DNA of 22,482 bases from a virus. Taxonomy: Duplodnaviria; Heunggongvirae; Uroviricota; Caudoviricetes. The DNA is taken from the IMG/VR virus record IMGVR_UViG_2531839146_000018; one strand, given 5' to 3'. Under the pieces are notes generated by a model that was not told the origin of the DNA, ran no database searches, and was given only the letters and a program-made list of their open reading frames with translations. Positions within the stretch are counted from its first letter, which is position 1, and every line of letters begins with the position of its first letter. Below are positions 4,153-22,482 of this stretch, piece by piece. The position numbers and the translations under genes were made by a program.

Positions 4153-4181
4153 TTTTACTCCTATTATCGGCACCATTCAAA
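4153..4181. repeat. Repeat X (TTTTACTCCTATTATCGGCACCATTCAAA), second copy at 21925-21952; candidate att-associated sequence
   Basis: About 24 of 29 positions shared with 21925-21952 in the same orientation. Confidence 0.45.
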
Positions 4182-4288: not shown

Positions 4289-4340
4289 TGGGGGTACTTA
4301 TGGGGGTATTTGCTGTTCGGTTTAGTGGAGGTACCCCCAA
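4289..4340. repeat. Repeat Y: two direct TGGGGGTA copies (4289-4309) plus an inverted copy GTACCCCCAA (4331-4340) immediately upstream of the P4-type int start; near-identical direct copy at 21848-21868
   Basis: TGGGGGTACTTATGGGGGTAT versus TGGGGGTACTTTTGGGGGTAT at 21848-21868 (20 of 21 identical); candidate att core or integrase-binding sites. Confidence 0.5.
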
Positions 4341-6186: not shown

Positions 6187-6617
6187 TGGAAAAGAAAAAC
6201 CGCCCATTACAGGCGGCTAATTCAGATATTCGCGTATCTGATATTACGCCCCTTACAAAATCCCTTCAAGCACCAAAGCGCACACCGAAAAAGCATCGTG
6301 CCCGAGTCTATATGCTGCGTACTGGTATAGAGGGATGGACAGAAAACGACATTCTTCGCTACTGCCGTCTGTCTTCTGGTCGTAACTATGCAACAGAGTT
6401 AGAACGCCAGCTTGGAATCACTCTGGAGCGTATCGACGAAAAGAATCCTGATGGTATCGGAACACACCTTCGCTACCGTTTCTCCTGCCGTGGTGATGTT
6501 CTGAAAGTGATCACTCATATTAACCATCTTGCGAACATAAATGATCACAACGGACTTTCTCAGCAGGAAATTGCCGACATTCTGAAACTCTACCCGGACG
6601 CGTTTAACGCCGCTTAA
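6186..6617 (+). CDS. Hypothetical protein (143 aa), basic N-terminus; conserved-island protein of unknown function
   Basis: Start overlaps the alpA stop (TGATG), GAGGTGG Shine-Dalgarno; no domain recognised. Confidence 0.7.
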   Translation: MEKKNRPLQAANSDIRVSDITPLTKSLQAPKRTPKKHRARVYMLRTGIEGWTENDILRYCRLSSGRNYATELERQLGITLERIDEKNPDGIGTHLRYRFSCRGDVLKVITHINHLANINDHNGLSQQEIADILKLYPDAFNAA

Positions 6618-6629
6618 CGGAGACTGAAA

Positions 6630-7463
6630 ATGAACATCGAAAAAAGCAGATTAATTTCTGAGGCCGCCCCTCATCTGAACGCCTCTCTGAGCACAATTAA
6701 CGGTAATGAATTTGCCGCAATTGTCCCGGTTATTCCTGGTCATATCGGTGGGCGTGAAACCAATATTGTTAGCGCAAAAGCGTTACACAAAGCGTTGGGC
6801 GTGGGAAAAGACTTCTCTACATGGATCACTGATCGCATCTCTGAATATGACTTCACCATTGGGCACGATTACTCAGTCCATAAAACTATTTCCCCAAATT
6901 TGGGGAAAAGCCCGAATGGCGCGGCTTACAGCAAGATTAAGCAGTCTGGCAGACCCGGCAAAGACTATCTGTTAAGTGTCGGAATGGCGAAAGAACTGGC
7001 AATGATCGAACGCAATGATCAGGGTCGCGCTATCCGCCGTTATTTCATCCAGTGCGAGGAAGAATTACAGCGTAGCGTTCCTGAAATCGCCGCCCGCTAT
7101 CGTCGCCAGCTAAAAGCCCGTATCAGTGCCGCAAACAACTTTAAGCCAATGTGCGATGCGCTGAATATGGCCCGTGCCGAGCAGGGGAAAACGACGCAGC
7201 AACACCACTACACAAACGAGAGCAATATGATTTCTCGTATCGTTCTTGGTGGGCTAACTGCTAAGCAGTGGGCGCGGATAAATGGCTATTCTGGCGAACC
7301 TCGCGACCATATGAACGCAGAACAGCTTGAGCACCTCTCATATCTCGAAAGCACCAATATCACGTTAATTGATATGGGCATGGAATATGAGCAGCGCAAA
7401 GGAGAACTCACCCGCCTGTCGCAACGCTGGCTCGCTAAGCGTCTGGAGGCGGTCCATGTTTAA
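6630..7463 (+). CDS. Phage antirepressor-like protein (Bro-N / KilA-C type domains)
   Basis: Composition and motifs (N-terminal AntA/Bro-like region, C-terminal ...RAIRRYFIQCEEELQR... KilA-C-like region) recalled as antirepressor family; ACGGAG Shine-Dalgarno. Confidence 0.75.
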   Translation: MNIEKSRLISEAAPHLNASLSTINGNEFAAIVPVIPGHIGGRETNIVSAKALHKALGVGKDFSTWITDRISEYDFTIGHDYSVHKTISPNLGKSPNGAAYSKIKQSGRPGKDYLLSVGMAKELAMIERNDQGRAIRRYFIQCEEELQRSVPEIAARYRRQLKARISAANNFKPMCDALNMARAEQGKTTQQHHYTNESNMISRIVLGGLTAKQWARINGYSGEPRDHMNAEQLEHLSYLESTNITLIDMGMEYEQRKGELTRLSQRWLAKRLEAVHV

Positions 7464-7638
7464 GCCGACAGGAACATCACAACCTCAAAAACGCTACAAA
7501 GATGCCCACGGAGCACTCGTTACTGTCGAAAGCGTGTCTCACAACCAAGTGACGTTTTATCGCGACGGGTATCAATCGCCATGCGTACAACCGCTGGCAC
7601 GTTTCATGAAGGAGTTCGCGGAGGTTAACAAATGCTAA
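7456..7638 (+). CDS. Small hypothetical protein (60 aa; MFKPTGTSQPQKRYKDAHGALVTVESV...), possibly DUF4222-like
   Basis: ATG overlapping the end of the previous gene; family assignment is from memory and uncertain. Confidence 0.55.
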   Translation: MFKPTGTSQPQKRYKDAHGALVTVESVSHNQVTFYRDGYQSPCVQPLARFMKEFAEVNKC

Positions 7639-8480
7639 CCGCCCAGAAGAAGATATTTTCACTGGCTGGCATGTCGCCAAAATCCAGTAATATGACGGCA
7701 AAATCAGGCATTAATACAGCAGATACAAGCAAAGTTTATCATTTGCTGGTGGTAGGAGCGGATGCCTTAACTATGTCAGAAATCACGGTCGATGGTGTTA
7801 GCGTTGAGAAGGTCAGCAGCTGCGCCAGAGAATTTCTGGTCGTAGATGGCTTTCTCTGCTCGCGTAGTGACTCCACAAAAACCTTCGTCCACACGCGCGA
7901 CGTTAACGAAATGAGCGCGATGTATTGTACATCTGGTGCTTCCAATAGTGAGTTTTCGGAGTCCATAAAAAAGAGCTTGCCGTTATGCGGCAACACGGTT
8001 TATGGTTATAAGGCACCTCATAAAACGGGTGCCGGGTTTCGCAGCCCGGAAATGTACGAGGCGACACATGACGCGCCGAGCGTCTTTTTTTGTGCCGTTA
8101 GCCAGACTCACACTTTTTTCAGTGATGCGGTTATAATCCGCGTCGCTTGCAAAATTATGGTGGGCTGGACAGGGCAGCCGAAAGGCTGGCCGGTTTCCTT
8201 GTACGCCGGTACTGCGAACTCTGTTCAGTCCACCACCAGCGAGTTTCGCAGCTCCGGTGGTGGGAAGAATTCCCAGTACAAGGAGGCTGCCACATGCTGG
8301 CTACTACCCCTACCCAAAAACCGCAATTTATCTGGATTATCGCCGCAGTTCGCCGCGATTGCCCGACAATTACCGCCAAAATTCATCATATTGCTGCCGA
8401 GTCTGAACGCGATGCTCGCCGTTCTCTGGTGCGCGATCACGTCTGCTTTTTTGCTGGTCGTATCCGCATGGAGGTGGCAC
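7632..8480 (+). CDS. Uncertain ORF (first part of a 355-codon open frame); Ser/Cys/Trp-rich translation looks poorly protein-like
   Basis: ATG overlaps the previous stop and follows GAGG, but the frame runs into the well-supported gene at 8481 and overlaps 8294-8488 in another frame. Confidence 0.25.
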
Positions 8481-8488
8481 ATGATTAA
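8294..8488 (+). CDS. Small hypothetical protein (64 aa; [24 protein letters not shown]...)
   Basis: Strong AAGGAGG Shine-Dalgarno 8 nt upstream of the ATG. Confidence 0.5.
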   Translation: MLATTPTQKPQFIWIIAAVRRDCPTITAKIHHIAAESERDARRSLVRDHVCFFAGRIRMEVAHD

Positions 8489-8699
8489 AACCTACGATGT
8501 GCATATGGATCCCCTCGAACGCACAAGCCAGATCATCACACTGACAGAAGTGATTAATGACATTCTGGTGAGCAACTCTCCCTCACGAGACGAAAAACTG
8601 AAGGCGTTACTCGCGATATTGGATCTCGCCGTTCGTGACGTTCATTTCCTGCTGGAAGGTGGCGAAATGCCAGGAAAAACGGGGGCAACCAATGAATAA
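8481..8699 (+). CDS. Small hypothetical protein (72 aa; MIKTYDVHMDPLERTSQIITLTEV...)
   Basis: GGAGGTG Shine-Dalgarno 5 nt upstream of the ATG; stop overlaps the next start (ATGAATAA). Confidence 0.6.
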   Translation: MIKTYDVHMDPLERTSQIITLTEVINDILVSNSPSRDEKLKALLAILDLAVRDVHFLLEGGEMPGKTGATNE

Positions 8700-13440: not shown

Positions 13441-13555
13441 GGTGTTGGTTCAGTTGGTTCAGTTGGTTCAATTTGTAAAGAGTATTGTTTTATAAGGATT
13501 TTATTCTTTTTATTGAACCAACACTGAACCAACAATACGGTATTTTGAACCAACA
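13441..13555. repeat. Iteron-type replication origin candidate: three direct GTTGGTTCA repeats (13444-13470), AT-rich spacer, three inverted TGAACCAACA repeats (13514-13555)
   Basis: Repeats read directly; location immediately downstream of the primase gene matches ori placement in P4/PICI-type elements. Confidence 0.7.
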
Positions 13556-13662: not shown

Positions 13663-13681
13663 ACTACGAAATTTTCGTAGT
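13663..13681. promoter_or_regulatory. Perfect palindrome ACTACGAAA-T-TTTCGTAGT; the same half-site motif (CGAAAATTTCGTAGG) recurs twice at 21539-21575
   Basis: 9 bp inverted arms read directly; shared motif at the right end suggests a common DNA-binding protein site. Confidence 0.4.
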
Positions 13682-14180: not shown

Positions 14181-14642
14181 ATGGAACTAAAATTTATTGA
14201 TAACCCTGTGCGATTACAGGCCTTTCTTAACGAGCCTGGCAATACCGAAAATATTGTTGAGCCGGGGCACACGTACTACATCAAGCCTGATGCGGTATAT
14301 CTCGGCATCTACGAAGGATTAGTGCTGGCCGGCGTTCATGAAGTGCGTAACTTCTGGCATAGCGTTGTTGAATGCCATGCGGTGTACGACCCCGGATTCC
14401 GTGGTGAATATGCACTGCAAGGTCATCGATTATTCTGCAAATGGCTTCTCGAAAACTCACCATTCCTTAACAGCGTCACCATGGTTCCTGACACAACGAA
14501 ATACGGACGGTCAATTATCCGTTTGCTTGGCGCTACCCGTGTTGGTCACCTGGCCGATGCATATATCAGATGTGGTAAGCCAGTCGGCGTAACGCTTTAT
14601 CAGTTAACGCGGCAACAATATAAGGAACTCAGCGAATGTTAA
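14181..14642 (+). CDS. Hypothetical protein (153 aa), first gene of the four-gene cargo operon; unknown function
   Basis: ORF tightly followed by three overlapping downstream genes; no domain recognised. Confidence 0.7.
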   Translation: MELKFIDNPVRLQAFLNEPGNTENIVEPGHTYYIKPDAVYLGIYEGLVLAGVHEVRNFWHSVVECHAVYDPGFRGEYALQGHRLFCKWLLENSPFLNSVTMVPDTTKYGRSIIRLLGATRVGHLADAYIRCGKPVGVTLYQLTRQQYKELSEC

Positions 14643-15313
14643 TTACCCATATAGCTCATAAACATCTCAATCGTGCCGTATACGAAAAAGGCGGTGATGG
14701 TGGTGCCTCTAAAGCCCAGGCGAAGGCCCAGCAGCAGGCAATTGATTTGCAGCGCGAGCAGTGGAATACGGTGATGAATAATCTCAAGCCGTATGCAGAA
14801 GTCGGATTGCCTGCTTTACAACAACTACAAGGACTGATGACTCTGGAAGGGCAGAATAAAGCCGCGAATGATTTCTTTGGTTCTGGTTTATATAAAACAC
14901 AGGCAGATCAGGCCCGTTATCAGAACCTTGTCTCAGCAGAAGCTACCGGGGGGCTTGGCTCAACAGCTACCAGTAACCAGTTATCTTCCATTGCGCCCAT
15001 GCTTTATAACAATTGGCTCAGTGGGCAAATGCAAAATTATGGAAACCTGCTAAATGTCGGGATGAATGCGGCATCAGGGCAGGCAACAGCAGGGCAAAAC
15101 TACGCCAATAATACCGGACAACTCTTGCAGGGGCTTGGCGCTATTCGTGCAGGTCAGGCGCAGCAGCCATCCAGTCTTGCGCGTGGTATTGGTGGGGCGG
15201 CATCAGGCGCTTTAGCGGGTGCGCAACTTGGTTCCGTTGTTCCGGGTATAGGTAATGTCGCCGGGGCTATTGGTGGTGGGCTTATTGGTCTTGTTGGGGG
15301 GCTTGGATTCTAA
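14636..15313 (+). CDS. Low-complexity Q/A/G-rich protein (225 aa) with glycine-zipper-like hydrophobic C-terminus; candidate ejection/injection (P22 gp7-like) protein
   Basis: Start overlaps the upstream stop; composition and C-terminal GGLIGLVGGLGF segment; the P22-like assignment rests on size, order and composition only. Confidence 0.75.
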   Translation: MLITHIAHKHLNRAVYEKGGDGGASKAQAKAQQQAIDLQREQWNTVMNNLKPYAEVGLPALQQLQGLMTLEGQNKAANDFFGSGLYKTQADQARYQNLVSAEATGGLGSTATSNQLSSIAPMLYNNWLSGQMQNYGNLLNVGMNAASGQATAGQNYANNTGQLLQGLGAIRAGQAQQPSSLARGIGGAASGALAGAQLGSVVPGIGNVAGAIGGGLIGLVGGLGF

Positions 15314-16734
15314 TGGCGACATGGCAACTTGGCGGGCTGCCTGGCATGGCACCGCAAAATGATAATGCTCCTCGTTCTTCCGTTCCTCAGCCTGTGCAGT
15401 ATCAGCAGCAGCCAAACGTAGGTTTAATGGCGCTACAGGGGCTAAGAGGCGTTGCTGAGATTAATCAGCAGGCACGTCAACAACAGCGTAAAGCAGAGTT
15501 TCAGAAAGCATATGCCGGGGCTTTTGAGTCTGGAGACAGAAACAAAATGCGCAGTCTTATTTCTGAGTATCCAGAAGAATTTGAAAGCGTTCAGAAAGGG
15601 ATGGGCTTTATTGATGACGACCAGAGAAATTCTATTGGTCATCTTGCGACTAGTGCTCAAATCGCATCTTCGCTCGGAACTGGGGCATTTGGAAAATTCA
15701 TAGCAGATAACGAAGATGAAATGCGTCGCTTGGGAATTTCTCCTGAGTCTGTTGCCGAAATGCATGTTAATGATCCACAGGAATTCCAGCGGCTTGCTGG
15801 TAGTATGGCACTGTTTTCTCTCGGTCATGAGAAGTACTTCGATATCAAAGATCGAATGGAAGGTCGGGATATTGAGCGTGGCAAGTTGGCAGAGACAATC
15901 CGCAGCAATCAGGCTGGAGAGGCGCTTCAGGCGAGAGGGCAGGATATTAGCCGAGCAAATGCGTTAACGTCAGCATATGCACCAACAGCCGCAATGCAGA
16001 ATTACAATCAGTACGCGCAAATGTTAAAGGCGGATCCAGAGGGGGCAGCGGCATTTGCGGCAGCGGCTGGAATTAATACAAACGCCAAAAAATTAATGAG
16101 TGTTAGGGAAAACGATGATGGCACTGTCACAAAATACTACACAGACGGAAGTGAAGAGCAGGGAAAACTAAACCAGCCAATATCTGGAGATGGGTTTCGT
16201 CCAATAGCTTTGCCAACAGCTCAAAAGATCATGGAAAAGTCGCCAGAAGGGGCTAAAAAAGTTGCTGGATTTGCATACAGAGTTAGGGATGCTCTTGATT
16301 CAATGGATACACTGAAAGGCCAGCTTAGCCCACAGCGAGTGGCGATCATTAATAATGCTTTGGGTAATGGGACGCTGGCTAACTTAACGCTCAGCCCAAC
16401 AGAGCAGCAATACGTTGTTAATGCTAATGACGCAATAATGGCAATACTCCGTCAGGAAACAGGGGCAGCAATCGTACCTGCTGAAATGTCAAAATATTAT
16501 CAAATGTATTTCCCTCAGCCTGGCGACTCCACAAAAACCATTGATACCAAGCGCCGGAAGATGGAAAACCAGTTCAATTCGCTGAAAGCTGCTTCTGGTC
16601 GAGCTTATGATGCTTTGCGTGTTATTTCAGCAGTTGACAGAGGAACTTCTTCTTCGTCGCAGACATTGCCGCAATCTGAGCAGGTATCACAGCCAGCAGC
16701 CAGCAGTAATTTTTCTTCACTATGGGGTGATTAA
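15313..16734 (+). CDS. Low-complexity Q/A/S-rich protein (473 aa); candidate ejection/injection (P22 gp20-like) protein
   Basis: TAATG start/stop overlap with neighbours; size close to 471 aa recalled for P22 gp20; no sequence-level confirmation. Confidence 0.8.
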   Translation: MATWQLGGLPGMAPQNDNAPRSSVPQPVQYQQQPNVGLMALQGLRGVAEINQQARQQQRKAEFQKAYAGAFESGDRNKMRSLISEYPEEFESVQKGMGFIDDDQRNSIGHLATSAQIASSLGTGAFGKFIADNEDEMRRLGISPESVAEMHVNDPQEFQRLAGSMALFSLGHEKYFDIKDRMEGRDIERGKLAETIRSNQAGEALQARGQDISRANALTSAYAPTAAMQNYNQYAQMLKADPEGAAAFAAAAGINTNAKKLMSVRENDDGTVTKYYTDGSEEQGKLNQPISGDGFRPIALPTAQKIMEKSPEGAKKVAGFAYRVRDALDSMDTLKGQLSPQRVAIINNALGNGTLANLTLSPTEQQYVVNANDAIMAILRQETGAAIVPAEMSKYYQMYFPQPGDSTKTIDTKRRKMENQFNSLKAASGRAYDALRVISAVDRGTSSSSQTLPQSEQVSQPAASSNFSSLWGD

Positions 16735-18839
16735 TGGCTAAAGCATGGAAAGATGTTATCGCCTCTCCACAGTATCAGGCGTTAGCACCAGAACAAAAAG
16801 TGCAGGCTCAGGAGCAATACTTCAATGAAGTCGTGGCCCCACAAGCCGGAGAAAGTGTAGAGCAGGCTAAGCAGGCTTTTTATGCTGCCTATCCACTACC
16901 ATCAACGAATGAAATAGACAGATCCCAATCAGCAACTCAAAATATTCAACATACATCATCTGATAATTCTCTTGCGTCAGGGTATGCAAAGTTAGCTACT
17001 CAGCAAAGAGAGGGGCTTGAGCGTTCAGCAGAACAGGGAGCCAGTCTTGGGGCTGCGATGCGCGATGCTATAACAGGCGAAAGCCGAATGACTCCAGAGA
17101 TGGAGAGACTGCAAAATGTCGCCTCTGCCCCAGAATTGAACTCACTAAGCATGGATGCCCTGAAGGCTGGATGGTCTCAACTTTTCGGCTCTGACGCGTC
17201 TCAGGAAAAGATTCTTCAGGGAATGGGGGCGACATTAAGGCAGGATGAGAAGGGGAATACTATCGTTTCTCTTCCATCAGGTGATTATGCCCTGAACAAG
17301 CCGGGTTTATCACCGCAAGACCTGACTTCGTTTCTTGCTAATGCGTTGGCGTTTACACCAGCGGGCAGGGCTGGAACGGTGCTTGGTGCCATAGGAAAAT
17401 CAGCAGCTACAGATTTAGCACTACAGGGAGCCACCAGCCTTGCTGGTGGAGAAGATATTGATCCGTTACAAACGGTAATTTCTGCTGGCATTGGTGGTAT
17501 TGGTAAGGGGCTGGAAAATACAGCGAGTGCGGTTTCGAGGGCTGTTCGTGGTGATATGTCTCCTGAAGCAAAGGCTGCTGTCGACTTTGCATCGGAAAGA
17601 AATCTGCCGTTAATGACCAGTGACATGCTGAAAGATAAAACCTTTATGCAGAGTCAGGCTCAGACATTAGGCGAAAGAGTTCCTTTTTTTGGAACCGGTA
17701 AGAATCGACTGAATCAACAACAAGCACGAGAAAATTTAGTCAGAACATTTAGCGATGGTCTGGGTAGCATTTCTGATAAACAGCTTTATGAATCTGCGAC
17801 TAAAGGGCAACAAAAATTCATTGAGGCAGCAGGAAAGCGATATAACCGCATAATTGACGCTATGGGGGATACCCCTGTCGATCTCTCAAACACGGTAAAA
17901 ACTATCGACAATCAGATTGCCGTGTTAAGCCGCCCTGGCAAATCTCAGGATAGAGCCGCGGTAAAAGTCTTGCAGCAATTTAAAGACGATATCACCAGCG
18001 GACCAAATGACCTGCGTCTGGCGAGGGAAAACAGAACCGATCTTCGAAAGCGATTTATAGCGTCATCTGACACTGTTGATAAAGATACGCTACAGAAAGC
18101 CAGCGATATTATCTACAAGGCATATACGGCGGATATGAAAAAAGCCGTAGCCAAAAATCTTGGAGCAGACGAAGCCATTAATATGGCAAGGGTTGATCGC
18201 TCATGGTCTAAATTCAATGACATGATGGGAAGAACACGCGTTCAAAAGGCAATAGCCAGCGGCAAGTCCACGCCTGAGGATGTAACAAAACTCGTTTTTA
18301 GCCAAAGCCCATCAGAACGTTCTCAGCTTTACAGGCTTCTGGATGACAATGGTAGGCAAAACGCACGAGCAGCCATAGTTCAGAATGCTGTAGATAAGGC
18401 GACTGATCCGTCTGGAAATATCAGTGTTGAGAAGTTTATTAATGCGTTACACCGGAACAGGAAGCAATCAGCAACTTTCTTTAAAGGCGTACATGGAAAG
18501 GAACTGGACGGCGTTATTAAATACCTCAACGATACAAGACACGCGGCAAAAGCGAACGTTCAAAACTTAAATGGTCAGCAACTTTATGGATTATTAGTTG
18601 GTGGTGGCATCATAAACGCAGCAGTATTGGCGGGGATGCTAAAAACGGCTGCGTTTGTTGTTCCTGCTGCTGGTGCCGTAGGCGGAGCAGCGAAGGCATA
18701 CGAAAGCCCTGTTATACGAAATGCCTTGTTACGTCTGGCAAATACGCCAAAAGGTAGCACAGCATATGACAGAGCGATCAGTACGGTCACACAATCGCTC
18801 ACCAGAGTCGCACAGGCATCACAAAAAGAAGCTCAATAA
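16734..18839 (+). CDS. Large low-complexity protein (701 aa) with C-terminal hydrophobic segments; candidate ejection/injection (P22 gp16-like) protein
   Basis: TAATG overlap with the upstream gene, GGGGTGA Shine-Dalgarno; C-terminal membrane-like region LYGLLVGGGIINAAVLAGML... Confidence 0.8.
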   Translation: MAKAWKDVIASPQYQALAPEQKVQAQEQYFNEVVAPQAGESVEQAKQAFYAAYPLPSTNEIDRSQSATQNIQHTSSDNSLASGYAKLATQQREGLERSAEQGASLGAAMRDAITGESRMTPEMERLQNVASAPELNSLSMDALKAGWSQLFGSDASQEKILQGMGATLRQDEKGNTIVSLPSGDYALNKPGLSPQDLTSFLANALAFTPAGRAGTVLGAIGKSAATDLALQGATSLAGGEDIDPLQTVISAGIGGIGKGLENTASAVSRAVRGDMSPEAKAAVDFASERNLPLMTSDMLKDKTFMQSQAQTLGERVPFFGTGKNRLNQQQARENLVRTFSDGLGSISDKQLYESATKGQQKFIEAAGKRYNRIIDAMGDTPVDLSNTVKTIDNQIAVLSRPGKSQDRAAVKVLQQFKDDITSGPNDLRLARENRTDLRKRFIASSDTVDKDTLQKASDIIYKAYTADMKKAVAKNLGADEAINMARVDRSWSKFNDMMGRTRVQKAIASGKSTPEDVTKLVFSQSPSERSQLYRLLDDNGRQNARAAIVQNAVDKATDPSGNISVEKFINALHRNRKQSATFFKGVHGKELDGVIKYLNDTRHAAKANVQNLNGQQLYGLLVGGGIINAAVLAGMLKTAAFVVPAAGAVGGAAKAYESPVIRNALLRLANTPKGSTAYDRAISTVTQSLTRVAQASQKEAQ

Positions 18840-20252: not shown

Positions 20253-20438
20253 TCATTGGTTGCCAGCCCGCGAATCAAGTTTGTTCTGGATCCAAGCTTC
20301 AACCTCCTCAAGCGACCATCTAGCTGATCTACCAATTTTAACTGGCTGTGGAAACGTGCCCGTCTTAACCCATGAGTAGATTGCCGTTTTCTTGAAGCCC
20401 GTTCTGAGCATAACTTCGCTTAATTTGATAAGGCGCAT
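20253..20438 (-). CDS. Second AlpA-family regulator (61 aa), opposite orientation to the first
   Basis: MRLIKLSEVMLRTGFKKTAIYSWVKTGTFPQPVKIGRSARWSLEEVEAWI matches the AlpA signature. Confidence 0.75.
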   Translation of the reverse strand: MRLIKLSEVMLRTGFKKTAIYSWVKTGTFPQPVKIGRSARWSLEEVEAWIQNKLDSRAGNQ

Positions 20439-20689: not shown

Positions 20690-20881
20690 ATGACACCACG
20701 AGAAATCGAGCTGCTGACCATTGCCAAGCTGGAGCATGACGGCCACCAGCTCAGCCCGGCAGAACTGCGGGAATTAAGGCGCCAGCTGGCAGAGGGCCCT
20801 GTAATAGCCAGGCGGTACCGCGAAATGATGACCAGCCCCGCATATCGCTGGAGCAAACCAGCGCCGCTCCGTGCGCGGTGA
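20690..20881 (+). CDS. Small hypothetical protein (63 aa; MTPREIELLTIAKLEHDGHQLSPAELRELRRQLAEGPV...)
   Basis: GGGGGA Shine-Dalgarno just upstream of the ATG at 20690; helical charged composition; function unknown. Confidence 0.45.
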   Translation: MTPREIELLTIAKLEHDGHQLSPAELRELRRQLAEGPVIARRYREMMTSPAYRWSKPAPLRAR

Positions 20882-20955
20882 GCAGCACCTAACCAGCACT
20901 AGACAAGCCCTGTGCTGGTGGATGTCCCTCATAATTAGCGGTTTTTAAACAGCGT

Positions 20956-21077
20956 GTTGGTTCACGGCCTCTTTTTGTTGGTTCAAAAATGGGGTGTGTT
21001 GGTTCACTTTTTGCGAATAATTCTTTTAAAAACAATACTCTTTACAAATTGAACCAACTGAACCAACTGAACCAACA
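20956..21077. repeat. Second iteron-type origin-like region, inverted relative to 13441-13555: three TGTTGGTTCA (20956-21007), AT-rich spacer, three TGAACCAAC (21051-21077)
   Basis: The reverse complement of 21020-21077 is nearly identical to 13437-13495 (about 58 bp); the remaining iterons have different spacing. Confidence 0.7.
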
Positions 21078-21112
21078 CCTTTTTGCTTATCTATATAGTC
21101 TGAGAGGCAGAA

Positions 21113-21400
21113 ATGATAAGGGACAGGAAAGCTGAAGATCTGGAGTCAAAAGGGCTATACCGGAGAGCTGCCGCACGATGGGCAGAAATCATGATGCTGG
21201 CAGATGGCGATAAAGAACGTGAACATGCAGCAAACAGACGCTCTGAATGTATCCGTAAGGCGGCACGCCAACCAGCAACTACAGACAGATTCGGAGATTT
21301 AAGACAGGCAGTTAAGCGAACTCATTCGGCTCTTGGTATGGATGAGGAAGCGAGAGGGTACTTCAGGCGTTATCGCGATAAAGATTGCCAGAGACAGTAA
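21113..21400 (+). CDS. Small basic protein (95 aa), possibly a PerC-family transcriptional regulator
   Basis: GAGAGG Shine-Dalgarno; N-terminus MIRDRKAEDLESKGLYRRAAARWAEIM resembles the PerC/Pch family as recalled; uncertain. Confidence 0.55.
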   Translation: MIRDRKAEDLESKGLYRRAAARWAEIMMLADGDKEREHAANRRSECIRKAARQPATTDRFGDLRQAVKRTHSALGMDEEARGYFRRYRDKDCQRQ

Positions 21401-21489
21401 TGCTCTCTCTGTTTTGGCAAATTACCCTTCACTTTGAAGAGATCGGAGCTATAAAAATGGTGTTATCCGGCTTCCTCAAATTGAGGTTT

Positions 21490-21750
21490 CCGAAAATATC
21501 AGCGGGTTAGCGATTAATCTGGCGAGTAATTAAACTGCGAAAATTTCGTAGGGGGTTACGAAAATTTCGTAGGTCTACTCATGGTTTAGGCTTACTTTCC
21601 CGACATCCCCCAATGGGTGGGGGCGAAATAATCAATGGGTTAGGCTTACCTCCCCCATTTCCTGCATTGCAGGTTTTCGAAAGAATCAATGGGTTAGGTC
21701 ATCGTGCAAATTTGCACTCTGACAGCCAACGCAATTTCTCGTTGGCGGAA
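21490..21750. repeat. Structured repeat array: three units (about 53 bp period) each starting (AAT)CAATGGGTTAGGCTTAC-like and followed by a different GC-rich hairpin; two CGAAAATTTCGTAGG motifs; perfect palindrome GTGCAAATTTGCAC (21704-21717)
   Basis: Unit starts at about 21580, 21633 and 21687; hairpins CCCCCAATGGGTGGGGG, CCTGCATTGCAGG and GCCAACG...CGTTGGC read directly. Confidence 0.5.
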
Positions 21751-21847
21751 ATATCAGGTATTTACTGAACGAACGGTCTACCCGCCTGTTCAACTACCAG
21801 TTGTACATGGCTGCTTTATGTGCAAATGGTGGTGAGAGAAAATTGTT

Positions 21848-21952
21848 TGGGGGTACTTTTGGGGGTATCTTCAAAGATGTAATTGGAAAATATCTTTATA
21901 TATCAATGTATTTTTATTGTTTGTTTTGTTCCTATTATCGCACCATTTAAAT
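21848..21952. repeat. Right-end copies of repeat Y (21848-21868) and repeat X (21925-21952); candidate attR or integrase-binding region marking the right boundary of the island
   Basis: Y matches 4289-4309 at 20 of 21 positions; X matches 4153-4181 at about 24 of 29; the X/Y order is reversed relative to the left junction. Confidence 0.45.
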
Positions 21953-22071
21953 CAATAAGTTACCCCATATTTAAATACACCACGTTTCCTCCTGTGCCGT
22001 ATTTGTGCCATTGTAACCCTGGCAATTCATCAAAATACTGTTCTGACATCAGGCAATGCAGGTGCAGACAT

Positions 22072-22482
22072 TTAAGCCAATTGCTGCCGCCATTCCTTGA
22101 CGTGGTCAATCAGGGCGCGGAGCTTTGGTGCAATATTGCGACGCTGTGGGAAATACAGATAGAAGCCTGGAAATTGTGGAAGAAAGTCATCAAGCAGCGA
22201 TACAAGCTTACCGCTTTCAATATATGGCCTGAAAGTTTCCTGAGTGGCAATTGTTATTCCTTCACCGACAAGAGCCAGCTGCAACATCAGACGCAGATCA
22301 TTAGTCGTAATCTGCGGTTCAATCGCAAGGTCGAAAGTTCTCCCGTTTTCTTCAAATGGCCAGCGATAAGGCGCAACCTCCGGGGACTGACGCCAGCCGA
22401 TACACTTATGGGTATTTCCCCCGGAGGCGAGAAAGCGCTCTCCACGCCCGGCCGCAAGGATCAGGACGACGGGGGCAGGCAT
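22072..22482 (-). CDS. LysR-family transcriptional regulator, C-terminal substrate-binding domain (partial; N-terminus lies beyond the window end)
   Basis: C-terminal region ...LVGEGITIATQETFRPYIESGKLVSLLDDF...FYLYFPQRRNIAPKLRALIDHV is typical of LysR-type effector domains; taken as chromosomal flank. Confidence 0.75.
   Translation of the reverse strand: MPAPVVLILAAGRGERFLASGGNTHKCIGWRQSPEVAPYRWPFEENGRTFDLAIEPQITTNDLRLMLQLALVGEGITIATQETFRPYIESGKLVSLLDDFLPQFPGFYLYFPQRRNIAPKLRALIDHVKEWRQQLA

Follow-up and report, generated by a model that had tools for sequence, protein, structure and literature searches.

Tandem variable palindromes paired with candidate IHF sites at the end of Escherichia coli phage satellites, and their homology to a segment of phage roi/pRha antirepressor genes

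The stretch of viral DNA analysed here (22,482 nucleotides, referred to as the window) carries near one end a non-coding repeat array of at least five units (21452-21774), in which a near-perfect palindrome that varies from unit to unit is followed, after 4-6 nt, by G(A/G)AAnn and then by the conserved motif (A/T)ATCA(A/G)NNNNTTA. This motif fits the consensus binding site of IHF, the units share homology with part of the roi/pRha antirepressor genes of phages, and in those genes the palindrome covaries with a residue of the predicted recognition helix of the encoded protein. Judged from these sequence features, the array probably serves, with a probability of roughly 0.55, as a non-coding, multivalent docking platform of several specificities for Roi-type proteins of helper phages together with IHF.

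The satellite and its array

The window contains a 17.8-kb integrated element flanked by the direct repeat TCCTATTATCG(G)CACCATT at 4159 and 21930; given its att repeats, gene set, RNAs and iterons, this element is a P4/PICI-like phage satellite. Its genes encode a P4-type integrase, AlpA, an AntA-domain protein, an Ash-family ORF, a primase with Zn-ribbon/Toprim/DUF927 domains, and homologues of the P22 ejection proteins gp14, gp7, gp20 and gp16, for which the best matches (APSE and P22-like phages) are only about 50% identical; the RNAs isrK and C4 are also present. No terminase gene was found by domain scans of the island ORFs, no lambda cosN was found in the island, and no tRNA was found at the att site. 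The array is flanked by perC on one side and by the attR arm on the other, with the att core about 165 bp away, and in a close relative (a linear record of 19 kb) the order is perC, array, int, as would be expected from circularisation. The features are, along the window:

4159-4177: attL copy of the att core, TCCTATTATCGGCACCATT
13445-13553: first cluster of the island iteron, after the primase gene
20957-21076: second cluster of the same iteron, P4-crr-like, with three copies of TTGGTTCA and three of TGAACCAA
21113-21400, + strand: perC-family gene, directly upstream of the array (Pfam PF06069, E = 3e-32; RefSeq annotation of the identical locus)
21452-21510, + strand: unit 1, roi-like segment, 96% identity over 50 nt to phage roi
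21474-21486, + strand: palindrome of unit 1, CCTCAAaTTGAGG, followed by GAAAAT
21497-21509, + strand: IHF-like site of unit 1, TATCAGCGGGTTA, one mismatch (ATCAG) to WATCAANNNNTTR
21535-21572, + strand: palindrome CGAAAATTTCG twice, at 21538-21548 and 21559-21569
21557-21571, + strand: extended form of the second CGAAAATTTCG copy, TACGAAAaTTTCGTA
21578-21597, + strand: degenerate conserved motif, CTCATGGTTTAGGCTTAC, the first of three CAATGGGTTAGGCTTAC-like segments listed in the preliminary description
21607-21642, + strand: unit 3
21607-21623, + strand: inverted repeat of unit 3, CCCCCAatgggTGGGGG (5-nt centre, CCCCCA..TGGGGG), followed by GAAATA
21630-21642, + strand: exact IHF consensus of unit 3, AATCAATGGGTTA
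21661-21696, + strand: unit 4
21661-21673, + strand: palindrome of unit 4, CCTGCAtTGCAGG, followed by TTTTC and GAAAGA
21684-21696, + strand: exact IHF consensus of unit 4, again AATCAATGGGTTA
21704-21717: perfect 14-bp palindrome with an even centre, GTGCAAATTTGCAC
21725-21764, + strand: unit 5
21725-21746, + strand: inverted repeat of unit 5, GCCAACG-caatttct-CGTTGGC (7-bp arms, 8-nt gap), followed by GGAAA
21752-21764, + strand: IHF-like site of unit 5, TATCAGGTATTTA, one mismatch (ATCAG)
21766-21774, + strand: TGAACGAAC, a one-mismatch copy of the island iteron TGAACCAAC, abutting the array end
21846-21870, + strand: direct repeats TGGGGGTAcTT / TGGGGGTAtCT in the attR arm; their counterparts lie upstream of int, at 4289-4312
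21930-21948, + strand: attR core, TCCTATTATCGCACCATT

The preliminary description, made from the same DNA, had placed a periodic array of three units at 21490-21750. Repeats are indeed found there, as exact core matches and inverted repeats confirm, but the array starts at 21452 or 21472 and comprises at least five units. On the + strand, the core GAAANNATCANNNNGTTA has four occurrences, three exact ones (21492, 21625 and 21679) and one that differs at two positions (21747); a repeat finder aligned three 39-nt copies (21472, 21605 and 21659, the last two 54 nt apart), and CAATGGGTTAGG-type segments also show a spacing of 54 nt. Each unit had been read as a conserved segment followed by its inverted repeat, and this order has to be reversed, the natural register being palindrome and then conserved motif. 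Both the different inverted repeat in each unit and the perfect 14-bp palindrome were described correctly. With arms of at least 5 nt and a centre of at most 1 nt, five palindromes fall in the 300 nt from 21470, which is the maximum for the window, against a window mean of 0.54 per 300 nt, and more than chance would give. Classes represented include CTCAA, CCCCA and CTGCA, among others.

Not all of these units are of the odd-centred type that is found in pRha genes: the exceptions are the two CGAAAATTTCG copies, the CCCCCA..TGGGGG repeat, the even-centred 14-mer and the repeat with 7-bp arms. The CGAAAATTTCG copies look like degenerate or alternative units, and their arms also occur in ACTACGAAAtTTTCGTAGT at 13663-13681, near ori-like iterons, while the 14-mer GTGCAAATTTGCAC shares the core CAAATTTG with a 20-bp palindrome (6889-6908) in the AntA gene of the island itself. 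As for an iteron origin, this was rejected, in that the island iterons are clustered at 13445-13553 and 20957-21076 and only the one degenerate copy abuts the array. Integrase arm sites were likewise discarded: the repeat common to both arms is TGGGGGTAyTT, not the array motif, and the TGGGGGTAyTT pairs are the probable arm-type sites. The array had also been called non-coding and not CRISPR-like, and both views were upheld. A frame at 21613-21768 is open over three units, yet the units of the related satellite EcCIEDL933 lie in different frames and carry stops, which excludes a coding repeat protein; the repeats are not identical, TRF finds no array, and no cas-type domain was detected among the scanned ORFs.

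Unit architecture and its conservation among satellites

For a quantitative description, 63 distinct units were taken from the window and from related satellites, with ATCA and TTA used in their selection. A perfect palindrome with arms of at least 5 nt is present in the 32 nt upstream in 68% of the units, compared with 5.8% of shuffled sequences and 9% of random genomic 32-mers. The array palindromes are 11-23 bp long and have a centre of a single nucleotide in 30 of 43 units; in 42 of the 43, a gap of 4-6 nt separates the palindrome from the G(A/G)AA that follows. Adjacent units are 54 nt apart in 56 of 126 intervals, and even the conserved part is only about 65-75% identical between copies. 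In an alignment of 38 units, all seven palindrome pairs have changed on both sides; compensatory cells number 48, against 19 +/- 3.6 in shuffles (a value that none of 500 shuffles reached), and a covariation score of 0.417 compares with 0.153; slid controls are lower. In the array units, then, the symmetry is conserved and the sequence is not.

The conserved motif fits the published 13-bp IHF consensus of Craig and Nash and of Friedman, WATCAANNNNTTR, and by this match it is a candidate IHF site. The sites at 21630 and 21684 agree with this consensus fully and those at 21497 and 21752 in all but one position; the two strands of the 22.5-kb window together have only three exact occurrences, two of them in the array and the third at 21950, just outside attR. 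Among the 63 units the consensus is exact in 43 and one mismatch away in 20, counts that are partly circular given the use of ATCA and TTA in the selection. The motif GAAA(A/G)(A/T) directly precedes the IHF core, and the four N positions are the most variable ones across units. In genes of the roi type, the IHF consensus falls on the codons for E-x-I-N-x-L-G, and copied gene fragments could have brought it along without any selection for it; that non-coding units have kept it, and vary mostly at the four N positions, speaks for selection without proving it.

Besides the window island, at least three other satellite families of E. coli have this architecture, mostly with the 54-nt period, at their integrase-distal end, so that the unit structure is kept in related islands, a point that the preliminary description had raised. 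The array-bearing types are the PerC/ejection-protein island of the window, the capsid-forming PICI EcCIEDL933, EcCICFT073-like PICIs and a capsid/decoration/Nu1-like-TerS satellite inserted in a lambdoid portal gene. The EcCIEDL933 type (O157:H7, beside phoQ) has six units by core-motif scan, or about eight to nine by eye, of the same design as in the window and with different palindromes, directly after hnh-terS-terL and a gene of 93 amino acids; the EcCICFT073-like PICIs carry two inverted lambda cosN sites. Unit numbers range from two to six per array by core-motif scan. Scans of IMG/VR for the array returned 14 and 60 loci, further types were obtained from E. coli chromosomes, and positions 21520-21790 of the window are matched in 693 of 5426 complete E. 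coli genomes. A strict two-unit pattern, searched in one genome per species, gave no enterobacterial representative and only three unrelated loci in Firmicutes/Clostridia; as no enterobacterial match was obtained, the array looks narrow in distribution and mostly confined to E. coli. Short-read assemblies seem to break at satellite ends, at the array.

The setting of the array is less constant than its design. It has the same orientation as int in the window type and the opposite one in the other families, its orientation relative to the upstream operon is reversed between window-type and hyp93-type satellites, and its distance from att varies from about 165 to 435 bp; because orientation and att distance differ in this way, no single downstream output is obvious. 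The 93-aa gene found beside most arrays belongs to no Pfam family and matches only phrog_1561, to which no function is assigned there; its product was ruled out as a general array binder, since the gene is absent from the window. A conserved 170-bp block beside the array in hyp93-type satellites, searched for as a phage cos site, had no phage match. In L025 and other relatives, units have been fused or deleted, a pattern in keeping with recombination between them.

Homology to roi/pRha genes and the intragenic palindrome

The array units are homologous to a segment of about 50 nt within the roi/pRha antirepressor genes of phages. Over 50 nt, unit 1 shares 96% identity with roi nt ~108-157 of HK620, H-19B, CUS-3, HK75 and many Stx phages, which encode ..KNGVIRLPQIEVSERINNLG.. 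within the Phage_pRha domain; the match has a perfect stretch of 43 nt, including 21 nt upstream of the palindrome that are absent in the other units. Unit 4 resembles the roi allele of HK542 (CTGCAtTGCAG and then AATCAATGATTTA) and KilAC antirepressor genes of E. coli (90% over 40 nt), and one EcCIEDL933 unit matches the phiP27 ant gene. For most units, the match to phage alleles is confined to the palindrome and the motif (36-50 nt at 89-96%), with flanks that are specific to the array. The palindrome and the IHF motif have the same geometry in pRha genes as in array units, and the single units detected in large phage contigs all map to the same pRha codons, each with a different palindrome. 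With an HMM built from pRha domains, none was detected in 25 satellite loci, the whole window island included; the same HMM recognises phage roi genes at E = 1e-34 to 1e-40. A sequence-based search for solved structures related to the Roi N-domain gave none.

Two pattern-seeded IMG/VR scans yielded 56 distinct pRha alleles, and 53 of these have a perfect palindrome centred at codons 34-36, compared with 0-6 in any other 9-nt bin. These intragenic palindromes are 11-29 bp long and nearly always have a 1-nt centre. One base of the 5' arm is the third position of a Pro codon, and its counterpart in the 3' arm is the second base of an E, V, G or A codon; because the 5' partner is synonymous, the symmetry must be selected at the level of DNA. 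Nearly every pRha-domain gene, and many AntA-domain genes, would appear to contain their own candidate dyad operator at a fixed codon position.

The palindrome is linked to the protein through residue x of the sequence R-H-D-x-V, which lies in the predicted recognition helix, a helix that Pfam aligns to a winged-helix recognition helix (HTH_24). In each of the 49 alleles compared, the identity of this residue goes with that of the second half-site base (N with T in 24, S with A in 17, K with C in 7 and D with G in one), an association that is perfect yet partly confounded by shared ancestry. Five alleles have their closest relative over the rest of the domain in another class, and a sixth is a tie; as an example, L157 (S) and L185 (K) are 88% identical. 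Since nearest relatives can belong to different classes, residue and base have switched together more than once. The Roi protein of HK542 (x = N, half-site CTGCA) also obeys the rule. In protein-DNA contacts, Asn prefers A, Lys prefers G, and Asp or Glu prefers C. The observed pairings resemble these preferences and suggest that the protein reads the palindrome of its own gene, in such a way that one residue of the pRha helix appears to read one base (N-T, S-A, K-C and D/E-G). This agrees with a study by Clerget and Boccard, in which Roi was reportedly found to bind a site inside the roi gene with an IHF site close by, IHF being reported to stabilise the binding. No description of a near-universal intragenic pRha palindrome, or of a residue-base rule, was found in the literature searched.

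Possible functions and comparison with known systems

A set of protein-binding sites, which the preliminary description had put forward in several versions, is as a general class the most likely reading of the array. The IHF match and the roi/rha-type copies shift the candidate binders from AlpA, PerC and the integrase to IHF and pRha proteins. In the preferred reading, the docking platform, each unit would be a composite site made of a roi/rha-type dyad operator of 11-23 bp and, about 10 bp further on, an IHF-consensus site. Different units would be operators of different allelic classes and serve different helper alleles; the CCCCCA-type palindrome of unit 3, for instance, seems to correspond to the K-class pRha alleles. 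Because the satellite encodes no pRha protein, the proteins on the operators would have to act in trans; they would be of the Roi/Rha type and be supplied by lambdoid and P22-like phages that co-reside with the satellite or infect its host, and with several palindrome classes in one array such binders, if any, would come from different phages. At each complex, IHF from the host would introduce a bend and add stability, and expression of a helper Roi-type protein would lead to a large nucleoprotein assembly beside attR. What we infer here is the occupancy of the array by Roi-type proteins and by IHF. As to the consequence, our preferred guess is that the satellite senses or hijacks (titrates) the regulator of its helper, with the bound array acting as a barrier to traffic across the end of the island; it is held loosely, because orientation and att distance differ between families. 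In a related and more tentative version, the array could be a library of operator decoys, tandem self-operator and IHF copies of several Roi/Rha alleles, by which the regulator of the active helper is detected, recruited or titrated.

Among the alternatives, an architecture based on IHF alone, in which phased bends shape the DNA near attP/attR for integrase/AlpA recombination, replication or packaging and the palindromes are passengers, is possible though rather unlikely. The dominant 54-nt spacing corresponds to about five helical turns, all 63 units agree with the IHF consensus fully or in all but one position, and the array always lies near att, on the integrase-distal (P-arm) side. The palindromes, however, are perfect, stand at a fixed distance and show compensatory changes in non-coding DNA, and the variation in att distance, orientation and unit number argues against a precise intasome geometry. 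Less probable still is a role of the units as homology arms, whose 40-60 nt of identity to helper roi/ant alleles would allow RecA, Red or Erf to form cointegrates or to bring about gene conversion. The 43-nt perfect stretch of unit 1 and the fusions and deletions of the L025 type would suit such exchanges, from which a window-type island, having neither terminase nor lambda cosN, might gain by hitchhiking on headful packaging; against this, most units match the phage genes only in palindrome and motif, and cos-type satellites with a packaging specificity of their own carry the same array.

A structured noncoding RNA, also among the earlier proposals, is improbable, whether as weak terminators, as 3' hairpins similar to REP/BIME elements or as an sRNA or antisense RNA against ant/roi mRNA. 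The region does fold better than shuffled sequences (z = -3.0 on the + strand and -4.6 on the - strand), its hairpins are followed by TTTC or TTTTC on the + strand, and in every family the array is at the 3' end of the last operon. Nevertheless, no intrinsic terminator (GC-rich stem, loop of 3-8 nt, T-run) was found on either strand of 20800-22100 and no promoter-like site at the array; Rfam 15 gave nothing at the gathering threshold in the array and nothing at E<=1 in 21350-21950. Mostly 1-nt centres are ill-suited to RNA hairpins, the orientation to the upstream operon is opposite in window-type and hyp93-type satellites, and mismatches in the palindromes on the + strand (8 G.T versus 4 A.C) show no significant bias. 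That the units are non-functional debris, decaying fragments of antirepressor genes left by illegitimate recombination at the island end, is a slightly poorer candidate. Units do resemble gene fragments, only 13 of the 63 have a stop in the roi-like frame, and some are degenerate (21535-21600 in the window). Yet an ordered architecture, spacing and palindrome perfection recur in several families and in the 693 E. coli genomes, and arrays only ever hold the one segment of about 50 nt of the gene.

A centromere-like site bound by one protein, another earlier suggestion, does not fit palindromes that differ from unit to unit. Least credible is a terminase-binding (cosB- or pac-like) site, in spite of the position of the array directly downstream of terS/terL and the 93-aa gene in three families and of the IHF site likewise used by lambda cosB: the lambda cosN GGGCGGCGACCT has no match with up to one mismatch in or near the array and none in the window, related satellites carry an exact cosN elsewhere, beside terS/rpp and 0.3-1 kb from the array, PICI cosB adjoins cosN (PMC6739421, PMC9026076), and the window-type island has the array with neither terminase nor cosN.

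How Gram-negative satellites of the PICI type perceive and exploit their helpers is only partly understood. If the docking platform is real, it would be a conserved cis element common to four or more satellite families. Two of the types, EcCIEDL933 (helper HK106) and EcCICFT073 (helpers lambda and phi80), have been studied by experiment, and the element would direct attention to one helper protein family, Roi/Rha, and to IHF as the host factor. The IHF-dependent toxicity of Rha and Roi has long been known, and the pRha palindrome with its residue-base correspondence could explain it; the rule could also let operator specificity be predicted from sequence. Several parts have precedents, namely the single Roi and IHF site of HK022 roi, the BIME-1/RIB repeats and the IHF-assisted cosB and parS sites, and no description of tandem, multi-allelic arrays of Roi-type sites in satellites was found in the searchable literature.

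Of these precedents, cosB of lambda (R3-I1-R2-R1) and PICI cos sites resemble the array in combining repeated protein-binding sites with an IHF bend near terminase genes, but in related satellites cosN and cosB lie elsewhere and the window has no cosN. Centromeres are similar in another respect: sopC of F consists of twelve 43-bp repeats, each with an inverted repeat, and in P1 parS an IHF site is flanked by ParB boxes. Their repeats are, however, nearly identical and bound by one protein, whereas the inverted repeats of the array vary by unit, and no partition gene was identified among the scanned island ORFs. The BIME-1/RIB/RIP elements of E. coli, reportedly described by Boccard and Prentki and by Oppenheim as an IHF site flanked by REP palindromes at operon 3' ends, are also an alternation of palindromes and IHF sites just after the last gene of a transcription unit. 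The REP consensus palindrome is about 35 bp long, GC-rich and imperfect. The palindromes of the array, in contrast, are of 11-23 bp, odd-centred and variable, with no resemblance to the REP consensus by eye, and the array belongs to satellites and has units homologous to a phage gene segment. The roi site, reported for HK022, has the palindrome and then the IHF motif in the same order and at the same spacing as the array units; it is a single site in a coding sequence, reportedly bound by the product of that gene, whereas the array presents five or more (up to about nine) tandem non-coding sites, with palindromes that differ between units, in an element that has no pRha protein. A site inside the gene of its own binder is also known from the lambda ori iterons within gene O and from P1 oriL within repL (PMC9948254). 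The pRha genes share with these a dyad site in their own coding sequence, covarying with a helix of the protein, but gene O and repL contain replication origins, whereas Roi and Rha act as regulators; the satellite array, for its part, copies the site and lacks the gene.

Genes and conserved sequences flanking the array

Around the array (21452-21774 of the window) or its counterparts in related loci from IMG/VR and E. coli genomes lie the following:
L002 4372-4653 and L022 5368-5649: gene for a 93-aa protein (phrog_1561)
L002 3716-3888, also in L011, L022, L106 and L108: conserved block of ~170 bp
window 21950-21962: another exact match to the IHF consensus, AATCAATAAGTTA, the third in number, just beyond the core of attR

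The 93-aa gene directly adjoins the array in three satellite families, between which identity is 74%, and its stop codon overlaps the last array unit; the window lacks this gene. The protein has a basic C-terminus (..WKKPERLRR) and is assigned to no Pfam family, only to phrog_1561. Many draft contigs stop exactly 3 nt past the stop codon of this gene, where the array starts (L242, L246, L248, L249, L253 and some 20 further loci in IMG/VR), and short-read assemblies are probably broken by the array.

In the five loci that have it, the ~170-bp conserved block (GGGCGTTAATGTCGATATGGGGATCCCCAT...CCGGATTTTTTTTCCGGTTAAC) separates the array from att; it contains a perfect 14-bp palindrome and had no match in the phage collection. 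In the window, the sequence flanking the third IHF consensus (21930-22000) is similar to integrase/tRNA-Thr junctions found in other E. coli genomes.

Cargo and RNA genes of the island, and a satellite beside a portal gene

Additional genes and RNAs were located as follows:
window 8013-8090: isrK (Rfam, 69 bits)
window 8153-8240: C4 antisense RNA (Rfam, 81 bits)
window 20253-20438, minus strand: a second gene of the AlpA family (61 aa; PF05930, E = 2e-13)
L022/L023 satellite, 6337-6348: exact lambda cosN

Both isrK and the C4 antisense RNA lie within a long 'Ash family' ORF (7632-8699), and the pair is an RNA immunity module of the P4/P1 type. The second AlpA-family gene is on the opposite strand, close to the island's right end. 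Window 14181-18839 encodes homologues of the P22 ejection/injection proteins gp14 (DUF2824), gp7, gp20 and gp16, an unusual cargo in a P4/PICI-like island; the gp20-like protein, the sole ejection homologue searched, shares ~50% identity with the closest phage proteins (APSE, P22-like).

In L022 (4561-10163) and L023, from E. coli APEC O2-211 and EC93, a satellite adjoins a truncated portal gene that belongs to a lambdoid prophage. The satellite carries genes for a primase, an SSB, a major capsid protein, a decoration protein, an HTH/excisionase-like protein and a Nu1-like TerS, and appears to be integrated within a prophage of the helper type.

Palindromes and iterons elsewhere in the island

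Outside the array, the window holds these palindromes and iterons:
6889-6908: perfect 20-bp palindrome TTTCCCCAAATTTGGGGAAA, inside an AntA-domain gene (6630-7463)
13663-13681: palindrome ACTACGAAAtTTTCGTAGT, near ori-like iterons
13445-13553 and 20957-21076: iteron clusters, TTGGTTCA x3 facing TGAACCAA x3

The 20-bp palindrome occupies codons 87-93 (ISPNLGK), and palindromes with arms of at least 5 and a length of up to 30 bp are found at the aligned position in 19 of 46 distinct AntA-domain alleles from IMG/VR, with near-palindromes in further alleles. In this respect the AntA-domain genes are similar to the pRha genes (phage roi/rha antirepressor genes), as in both the dyad is encoded within the gene itself. 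The arms of ACTACGAAAtTTTCGTAGT are shared with TACGAAAaTTTCGTA within the array (21557-21571), and this palindrome may be a site for a protein encoded by the island.

The same iteron is present in two separate clusters. The first directly follows the gene for the DUF927 primase and the second lies 7.5 kb away, upstream of perC, an arrangement that resembles the ori/crr pair of P4.
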